Part shown: positions 11,620 to 13,122 of the stretch, piece after piece | Position numbering within the stretch: position 1 is the stretch's first letter | Layout: every line of letters starts with the position of its first letter | Origin: Alkalispirochaeta sp. | GTDB lineage: Bacteria > Spirochaetota > Spirochaetia > DSM-27196 > Alkalispirochaetaceae | DNA length: 64,000 nt | Assembly: GCA_965601925.1 (NCBI GenBank) | Contig: OZ271854.1 | Coordinates: 1,888,001-1,952,000 of the forward strand | Direction: 5' to 3' | Program-made: the position numbers and the translations under genes | Notes under the pieces: model-generated | Told to the model about the DNA's origin: nothing | Databases searched by the model: none | The model's input: only the letters and a program-made list of their open reading frames with translations

Positions 11620-13122
11620 GTGAAAAAGAGACGGATAGAAACCAACGGCTTGAGAACGACGCTTACGGCTGCGGCGGCGCTTCTCGTCGTGATGGTGTTG
11701 AGTGGATGTGAATTGTTGGGGGAGATCCTTGGAGAGGATGATGGAGACGACACACAGGTCTTTGCCGAGGATGCGATAGGTCGAGGTTACAACATCCTCG
11801 GCAATTATGCGGACAATAAAGAGGTCCGCGCTCCCGTGTTGGATTTTGGGCAACTGCTTGCCGACGGTCTCGTAGACGAGCGCGTTATCGAGCGTGCGTC
11901 CTTCGAGACCTTTTCGGGATCAAGTGTTGAGGAGTACACCGAGAGCTTGGAAGTAAATGTCGAAGTGAGCGGAAGCTACAAGGGCTTCAGCGGATCGCTT
12001 GAAACCAATTTTTCCTCTGAAACATATAGTCGATCCGAGTTTTCATACGCGACGGTGCAGAGCGAGATTTTCAAACGTAGTTTCAACGTCGATACCCGTT
12101 CTTCGGAAACTCTCAGGGCATATTTGACCGAACGTGCGCGTGCGGAACTCAACGATCCAAGCGTGCCCTTAGATACGCTGCTGAGCCGTTACGGCTCGCA
12201 CGTTCTGCTCGGGATCTACGTCGGCGGTAGGTTGGATTACAACATGGCGACCGATTTCTCACAGTTCAGTAGTGAGCAGCTCGTCGGCGTCGCGGCAAAT
12301 GCATCGTTTAAGAACGTTTTTGCCTCGGCCGAGATCGACGTTGATGTGGAGTACAACGAAGAGATCAGAACTATGGAGCAGAACTCGCAAATACGCGTCA
12401 ATGTGTACGGCGGATCGAGCGAGTTCGGCCAGAATATCTTGAACGATAACGACTACACGCGCTGGATTGATAGTGTAGATGAACGCCAGATATTCGTCGG
12501 ATTCTTGGATGGACAACGGCCGCTCGTCCCTCTGTGGGAGTTCATTGACGATTCCGCACGTGCCGCCGCCCTTGAAGCAGCCTTTGAAGAGATTGCCGGT
12601 GATACGTCCGAAAACTTCACTGAGCAACCGATGCGCGTACGCGTTTCTCTCGATCGATTCACCGTCGTCAATATTGACGATGAACTTGGAGGAAGATCGG
12701 AGATCGAGCTTTACGGCGAGGTCCGTGCTAAGGGATGGCGAGAGATTGATGACACCGGTAGTAATCTGCGCTTTATCGGAAATACTGCCGACGTTCGGCT
12801 GTGGTCGCGAGATAGGGACAATGTCTTGTCACTTCCTCCCGGGGACGGCATGGGTGACGGGCGTGCCCCTGGGGGCGATACGCGTAGAACGGTGGAGATC
12901 ACCAACTTCAACGAACAAGTGTCCGCGATTGAGTTGATCGCCGATCTGTCGGATCAAGACGGCGGAAGCGCAAGCAACGACGACGACTTCTCGTACGCGA
13001 ACCAAGTCTTCTACATTCGCGACGGTTTCGGAGGAGCGAACGGGCAAAAGGTATTGGAGGTCGAAATGCCGGGCAGCACGATGAGGGTAAAGGCGTACTT
13101 TACGCTTGAAATCGCTCGATAG
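11620..13122 (+). CDS. MAC/perforin (MACPF) domain lipoprotein
   Basis: GTG after GGAGG; lipobox VLSGC; IGRGYNILG; MACPF signature YGSHVLLGIYVGG; VNVYGG..YTRWIDSV..LVPLWEFI; Ser/Glu-rich TMH-like segments. Confidence 0.88.
   Translation: MKKRRIETNGLRTTLTAAAALLVVMVLSGCELLGEILGEDDGDDTQVFAEDAIGRGYNILGNYADNKEVRAPVLDFGQLLADGLVDERVIERASFETFSGSSVEEYTESLEVNVEVSGSYKGFSGSLETNFSSETYSRSEFSYATVQSEIFKRSFNVDTRSSETLRAYLTERARAELNDPSVPLDTLLSRYGSHVLLGIYVGGRLDYNMATDFSQFSSEQLVGVAANASFKNVFASAEIDVDVEYNEEIRTMEQNSQIRVNVYGGSSEFGQNILNDNDYTRWIDSVDERQIFVGFLDGQRPLVPLWEFIDDSARAAALEAAFEEIAGDTSENFTEQPMRVRVSLDRFTVVNIDDELGGRSEIELYGEVRAKGWREIDDTGSNLRFIGNTADVRLWSRDRDNVLSLPPGDGMGDGRAPGGDTRRTVEITNFNEQVSAIELIADLSDQDGGSASNDDDFSYANQVFYIRDGFGGANGQKVLEVEMPGSTMRVKAYFTLEIAR

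Follow-up and report, generated by a model that had tools for sequence, protein, structure and literature searches.

A spirochaete MACPF lipoprotein with a predicted C2-type, probably calcium-binding tail

Among MACPF proteins, the C2 domain was taken in a 2012 study as unique to perforin and used as a criterion of orthology (PMC3477005), and a 2026 paper describes C2 domains as typically absent from prokaryotes (PMC12922734). In mouse perforin, the calcium residues are D429, D435, D483 and D485, with D489-D491 nearby, and activity needs W427, Y430, Y486 and W488 (PMC10400287). In bacteria, the C-terminal domain of the MACPF toxin BSAP-1 binds its receptor (PMC12853789). The stretch analysed here (the window) comprises 64,000 nucleotides of contig OZ271854.1 of Alkalispirochaeta sp. 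and encodes a 500-residue putative lipoprotein in which a MACPF core is followed by a predicted C2 domain. The literature searched, which did not include one relevant supplement, contained no account of a MACPF-C2 protein from bacteria. Since the kin of the core are bacterial, the perforin-like architecture is most likely convergent: the pairing of MACPF and C2, so far described for vertebrate perforin, exists also in bacteria and was most likely reached independently.

Predicted C2-type tail and MACPF core

The C-terminal tail, which the original prediction had left unassigned, can now be given an identity: from the tail model and fold searches it is predicted to be a C2 domain of type II whose acidic loops are of the calcium type, and the C2 fold itself is very nearly certain on that model. 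The AlphaFold2 model of the tail (pLDDT 88.1, pTM 0.85) is an eight-stranded sandwich and can be aligned to type II C2 domains without change of sequence order. The fold search proposed for the last ~160 residues was run, and C2 folds fill the whole match list in each of three tail-model searches and also appear in one search made with an earlier model. Perforin-1 C2 and SmC2P1 are the top matches and Cry37Aa1 the third, with Z at most 8.4 and sequence identity of 4-14%. The model likewise bears out the beta-rich character ascribed to the tail; the acidic character is mild only (29 D/E versus 19 K/R in 164 residues) and does not distinguish it, the core being no less acidic (58 versus 22 in 306 residues).

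Pfam gives no significant match in the tail region of the window protein or its relatives, and none to PF00168; the tail is therefore described as a C2-fold domain, yet not as a PF00168 member. Tail-only profiles run against PDB sequences found no named C2 family at significance, and perforin was absent from the A4, A6 and A7 searches. With the A6 profile, the matches were Cry37Aa1 at E 0.22 and a plant C2 protein at E 0.19; that plant protein came up again with the A7 profile (E 0.38), beside a biotinyl domain (E 0.32). BamA matches of the A4 profile were rejected as chance (E 0.16 or more). The carrier P0012, used as a query against PDB sequences, gave nothing useful, and word-seeded homologue searches with the tail returned P0028 and the protein itself only. 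In the ESM Atlas, the tail of P0014 fell with bacterial clusters without names (0.91-0.92) and with a cluster that has PF00168 on 30% of its members (0.85), which is a lead only. CDC domain 4 was rejected as an identity for the tail: the A5 profile matches CDC structures only up to a point near profile position 300, short of the tail columns, and the top 50 rows of the fold search contain no CDC domain 4.

Calcium binding by type II C2 domains takes place in the loops that join strands 1 and 2 and strands 5 and 6. The conserved acidic residues of the tail cluster in two loops, corresponding to loops 1 and 3, and on the tail model calcium binding is probable. Of the 42 rows of A5, an acidic residue stands in 39 at E363, 34 at E355, 42 at D445, 40 at D447, 34 at D454 and 39 at D455, counts that are inflated because the rows were selected with a profile that itself holds those residues. 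Perforin spacing, under a pattern that accepted Glu at position one and Asn or Ser at two further positions, occurs at loop 1 in 25/42 rows, at loop 3 in 13/42 and at both in 10/42, the paralogue of the window protein included. The loops of the window protein are 2-3 residues longer than those of perforin; we infer that they correspond to the perforin calcium loops residue by residue.

The core is MACPF by both sequence and fold. The HMM check of the family assignment matched PF01823 to residues 124-323 with 42.1 bits (E 1.4e-10), the cut-off being 21.5. The closest solved sequences are GNIP1Aa (E 2e-27), Mpf2Ba1 (E 5e-26) and Plu-MACPF (E 7e-12); with the full protein as query, perforin is not among the six solved-sequence matches at E up to 1. 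The MACPF signature reads Y/W-G-T/S-H-F/Y-x6-GG. It was found where the original prediction had named it, at residues 191-203, with Val at the usually aromatic fifth position, as in 29/41 relatives. The start motif GxGY is present as GRGY at residues 54-57, and the downstream GG..W..S..PLW motif lies where expected, PLW being residues 304-306.

Two alternating segments, starting at residues 110 and 224, had been proposed as membrane-inserting hairpins. Shuffling of the four 11-residue strands gave p = 0.015, 0.040, 0.34 and 0.009 (uncorrected) for hydrophobic/polar alternation, so that three of the four fall below 0.05, and the alternation is retained in column means across 41 relatives. This part of the claim holds at the level of sequence. 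The structural check was less decisive: a full-length AlphaFold2 model built from 7 rows has pLDDT 56 overall, a poorly defined tail and values below 50 across both hairpins, which neither demonstrates nor refutes them; it served for fold searches only. Prediction of a two-copy complex, run without folded controls, gave no answer (score 0.00 both times). Judged from motifs and alternation, the core appears intact, with two full-length hairpins predicted to be amphipathic.

The protein also carries a predicted lipoprotein signal. A basic N-terminus and a hydrophobic stretch precede the lipobox LSGC, which lies, as first noted, at residues 27-30. Cys30 is the sole Cys in the protein, and a lipobox-like Cys was found in 6/6 full-length relatives examined, the window protein counted among them.

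Gene structure and surroundings

The gene has a G+C content of 53%, versus 60% for the genome (Table 1). The GTG at 11620 is favoured over a start at 11479 because the strong Shine-Dalgarno GGAGGTGA precedes it. Upstream sigma-70-like matches are at chance level (2 seen versus 1.3 +/- 1.3 in shuffles).

Table 1. Coordinates of the MACPF-C2 gene, its parts and adjoining features in the window
Feature	Position	Strand	Basis
MACPF-C2 lipoprotein gene, 500 aa	11620 (GTG)..13122 (TAG)	+	ORF; identical protein on record, P0002
Signal peptide II and lipobox, predicted lipidated Cys30	11620..11709	+	sequence
Acidic tether, residues 31-53 (9 D/E, zero K/R)	11710..11778	+	composition
MACPF core, about residues 48-330	11761..12609	+	Pfam match 124-323; sequence and fold matches
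Predicted transmembrane hairpin 1, residues 110-133	11947..12018	+	alternation; ungapped alignment to Mpf2Ba1, GNIP1Aa
MACPF signature, residues 191-203	12190..12228	+	motif
Predicted transmembrane hairpin 2, residues 220-245	12277..12354	+	alternation; ungapped alignment to Mpf2Ba1, GNIP1Aa
Predicted type II C2 domain, residues 337-500	12628..13119	+	AlphaFold2 tail model; fold searches
Strand 1-2 loop (CBR1-like): D353, D354, E355, E363	12673..12708	+	conservation; loop position from tail model
Strand 5-6 loop (CBR3-like): D445, D447, D454, D455, D456	12952..12987	+	conservation
Shine-Dalgarno GGAGGTGA	11610..11617	+	sequence
Sigma-70-like promoter match, 10/12 positions	11514..11541	+	motif search
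Downstream lipoprotein-like gene, 422 aa, 42 bp from MACPF-C2 gene	13165..14433	+	weak propeller/BNR-type matches

The 422-residue downstream gene is possibly co-transcribed with the MACPF-C2 gene. No homologue of its product was found in the genome or in loci L001-L060 besides itself, and its candidacy as an immunity partner was set aside because none lies beside the other MACPF genes of those loci. Comparison of the same loci found no conserved neighbour or immunity gene for the window MACPF-C2 gene.

Divergent from the MACPF gene are a lipoprotein-like gene without a clear family and a small FHA-domain gene (9721-10692 and 10902-11312, minus strand). A 1334-residue fusion at 14466-18470 (plus strand) opens with a degenerate kinase-like stretch (by eye) and further has AAA_16 (under the cut-off), a TPR-like region and an AraC helix-turn-helix; a 1073-residue protein at 4544-7765 (minus strand) combines TPR repeats with a transglutaminase-like core (E 7e-4, under the cut-off).

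Relatives of the core and carriers of the tail module

MACPF proteins are patchily distributed, occurring in 5/61 genomes searched, this one counted. Four of the seven matches carry the window tail type (two here, one each in G001 and G045); of the other three, one has a ricin-like tail and two another beta-rich tail, all by eye. Most further MACPF relatives end in an MABP-like beta-prism (motif by eye). Within the same genus, two MACPF lipoproteins of G006 (L006:1108-2607, L008:835-2463) have a different Asp/Gly-rich beta tail. Other architectures include a ricin-like end recognised by eye (L005:907-2751), a laminin-B-like tail at E 3e-4, under the cut-off (P0007, P0008), and a hemopexin-jacalin-MACPF-C2 arrangement (P0044, P0051). 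Tandem MACPF gene pairs stand within single loci at L049:3660-9056 and L021:4196-7392.

A quick tree was built from 52 cores, with nine duplicate loci and cores of fewer than 190 profile positions (including P0044 and P0051) omitted and perforin absent. The window protein adjoins P0003 in an 11-row clade (SH-aLRT 97) that holds eight window-type tails and three others. A second group, of four BACON-repeat MACPFs with the same tail, is placed elsewhere; three of the four are from Bacteroidales records. The tree shows exchange of tails among MACPF cores, with which a single origin of the MACPF-C2 pairing is still compatible. As close cores bear differing tails even within a genus, and as the C-terminal domain of BSAP-1 binds its receptor, the best inference by analogy is that the tail would decide targeting.

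The second MACPF copy in the genome (P0006, C1:128987-130402) is 41% identical to the window protein. At its locus (G000:C1:127574-130402; L001:5575-8589, minus strand), the MACPF-C2 gene is directly followed by a gene for an alpha/beta-hydrolase lipoprotein with a GHSWG motif (PF12697 E 5e-5, below the cut-off), which ends in the same C2-type module. The order MACPF then hydrolase recurs in G001 and G045, with hydrolase identity of 63-71% over the stretches compared; the C2 tail of the hydrolase was confirmed in G001 (L009, E 2e-11) and lies beyond the locus end for G045. The pair in G001 and G045 has a further shared gene upstream, not found in G000. No hydrolase partner lies beside the window gene.

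The module extends well beyond MACPF proteins. Searching 1.84 billion representatives with a tail profile of 7 rows yielded 49 distant hits at E up to 0.001, none of which matched PF00168. By Pfam, 16 have a thiol-activated-cytolysin (CDC-like) core, seven a MACPF core over the cut-off and one under it; of the other 25, 15 are without a family, several of them being fragments, and 10 carry different domains (e.g. endonuclease/phosphatase, alpha/beta hydrolase, surface repeats, ankyrins, ricin). In many CDC-like proteins (P0014, P0015, P0021, P0026 and others; L061-L063, L068-L070), the C2-type module replaces the cholesterol-binding domain 4. BACON-repeat MACPF lipoproteins with the module (L012-L016, P0009, P0010, P0024) are from Bacteroidales where the record is named; the form in L015 and L016 has diverged and was not scored by the tail profile. 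Within the phylum, 12/401 genomes have the module, this one included, the carriers being by eye CDC-like lipoproteins and surface-repeat proteins.

Single carriers show further arrangements. The module terminates InlB-type-repeat surface proteins of ~1100 residues (L064-L067, P0022), which come from a single genus, in four genomes of 2.8-2.9 Mb. P0035 and P0048 are lipoprotein-like and have a C2-type module at the N-terminus; their C-terminal part, Ser/Thr-rich and alternating, is aerolysin-like by eye and has no Pfam match. For P0035, the idea of an aerolysin-like core following the C2 was rejected, the PDB giving no support. P0012 has two tandem C2-type modules followed by an endonuclease/exonuclease/phosphatase domain and a ricin-like end, and is possibly a lipid phosphodiesterase.

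Proposed mechanism and comparison with known systems

The combination of a lipoprotein signal, a MACPF core and a C2-type tail with acidic loops makes calcium-dependent membrane docking likely, and pores likely too. The preferred reading, with a probability of about 0.55 for the whole route, is that the window protein is a calcium-docked pore former working like perforin. It would be exported and lipidated at Cys30, the signal being visible in the sequence and the processing presumed. Surface display or delivery in outer-membrane vesicles may follow, with release from the tether, by analogy with BSAP-1 (PMC12853789; bioRxiv 10.64898/2026.08.05.742979); given a tether without Lys or Arg, release would not go through arginine cleavage as it does there. 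Calcium would be bound by D353-E355/E363 together with D445/D447/D454-456, neutralising the acidic cradle, as the predicted fold and the conserved residues suggest. The tail might then dock on head-group phosphates, anionic lipid or lipopolysaccharide (LPS) being likelier than aromatic insertion. Oligomerisation would follow, and hairpins 110-133 and 220-245 would refold into a beta-barrel, as extrapolated from Mpf2Ba1 and BSAP-1.

The calcium loops themselves supply a point that weighs against a perforin-like route: aromatic residues, present there in 16/42 rows of A5, are missing from positions 352-362 and 447-454 of the window protein. Their absence suggests bridging to anionic head groups or LPS, unlike the insertion of perforin into neutral bilayers. 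It also favours a BSAP-like toxin, in which the C2-fold tail would recognise a protein or glycan receptor on a competitor bacterium, calcium would be structural or sugar-bridging, and MACPF would form the pore. The shared lipoprotein-tether-MACPF-tail layout, with the receptor-binding tail of the BSAPs, the patchy presence and the swapping of tails within the genus all fit such a toxin. Its family match is double-edged: the BSAP5a family (NF053771) is hit, at 40.6 bits, but far under the 500-bit cut-off. In addition, the acidic loops are conserved across unrelated carriers (CDC-like, hydrolase and stand-alone), which a general ligand fits better than a strain-specific receptor. A BSAP-like toxin is accordingly rated a serious but somewhat unlikely alternative.

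Lower odds attach to a non-lytic protein or half of a system, i.e. an anchored platform that, in the manner of the large CDC-like component, needs a partner, or else a surface protein with affinity for membranes or minerals that makes no pores. CDCL-L anchors a separate pore-forming partner (PMC11169675), the paralogue precedes a hydrolase lipoprotein in three genomes, and the module also terminates surface-repeat proteins without a pore core. Both predicted hairpins are nevertheless full length and amphipathic, the core motifs are conserved, and the window gene has no conserved neighbour, all of which make this explanation improbable. That the tail is an unrelated beta-sandwich with coincidental acidic loops would suit the modest Z scores and identities and the lack of a significant profile match to a named C2 family, but is highly improbable given a single fold family throughout the tail-model searches and in the earlier-model search, acidic residues in two canonical loops and perforin spacing in relatives.

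On the preferred reading of calcium-dependent docking, a fold and a calcium-switch hypothesis are now attached to a tail that recurs on many MACPF and CDC-like proteins, groups with binding domains described as diverse. The tail module constitutes a domain family absent from Pfam, and the window protein offers a small, disulphide-free model for coupling C2 docking to MACPF pore formation. A bolder and distinctly speculative idea is that bacteria hold a large, unannotated pool of perforin-type calcium-binding C2 modules, swapped among MACPF, CDC-like proteins, binary toxins and lipid hydrolases, from which the C2 of vertebrate perforin came. If so, a single calcium switch would direct both members of the spirochaete MACPF-C2 and hydrolase-C2 pair, a pore and an enzyme, to the same membrane.

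Among described systems, perforin-1 (MACPF-EGF-C2; PDB 3nsj, 4y1s) shares with the window protein the union of MACPF and C2 in one chain, the criterion of PMC3477005. Its C2 domain and SmC2P1 (3w56/3w57) are of type II with acidic loops 1 and 3, like the window tail. Perforin-1 has an EGF-like domain and aromatic membrane anchors in its calcium loops; the window protein has neither, holding one Cys and a helix (312-330) that runs directly into the tail. With no EGF domain and a bacterial core, it belongs to the MACPF family without being a perforin orthologue.

Mpf2Ba1, GNIP1Aa (Mpf3Aa) and Plu-MACPF (Mpf1Aa1) are the closest solved cores, with hairpin lengths equal in the first two; none of them is known to be a lipoprotein. 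The chains of Mpf2Ba1 and Plu-MACPF finish with a beta-prism (PMC10344926) and that of GNIP1Aa with a beta-tripod, whereas the window protein ends in a C2-like tail. The Bacteroidales BSAP toxins (BSAP-1 to -5, BT3439) match it in overall plan: lipoprotein, tether, MACPF and variable targeting tail. Here, however, the host is a spirochaete, the tether has no basic cleavage site and the tail is C2-like, not DUF5648 or PF20779/PF20785.

Cry37Aa1 (Xpp37Aa1; PDB 4rhz_B), the partner of Cry23Aa1, is a bacterial C2 sandwich tied to a pore former (PMC7404982), and has been likened to Cry34Ab1 instead (PMC4229197). It has the E-x-YG, W and E-x-D...DD motifs of the tail family and matches the A5 tail columns at E 0.0015, although tail-only profiles give E 0.22 (A6) or miss it (A7); it is a probable solved member of the family. 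Unlike the window protein, it is a separate 126-residue chain with an aerolysin-type partner. The CDC-like proteins (CDCL-L), to which 16 of the 49 module carriers are akin, are likewise pore-forming lipoproteins, in which the fourth domain is exchangeable.
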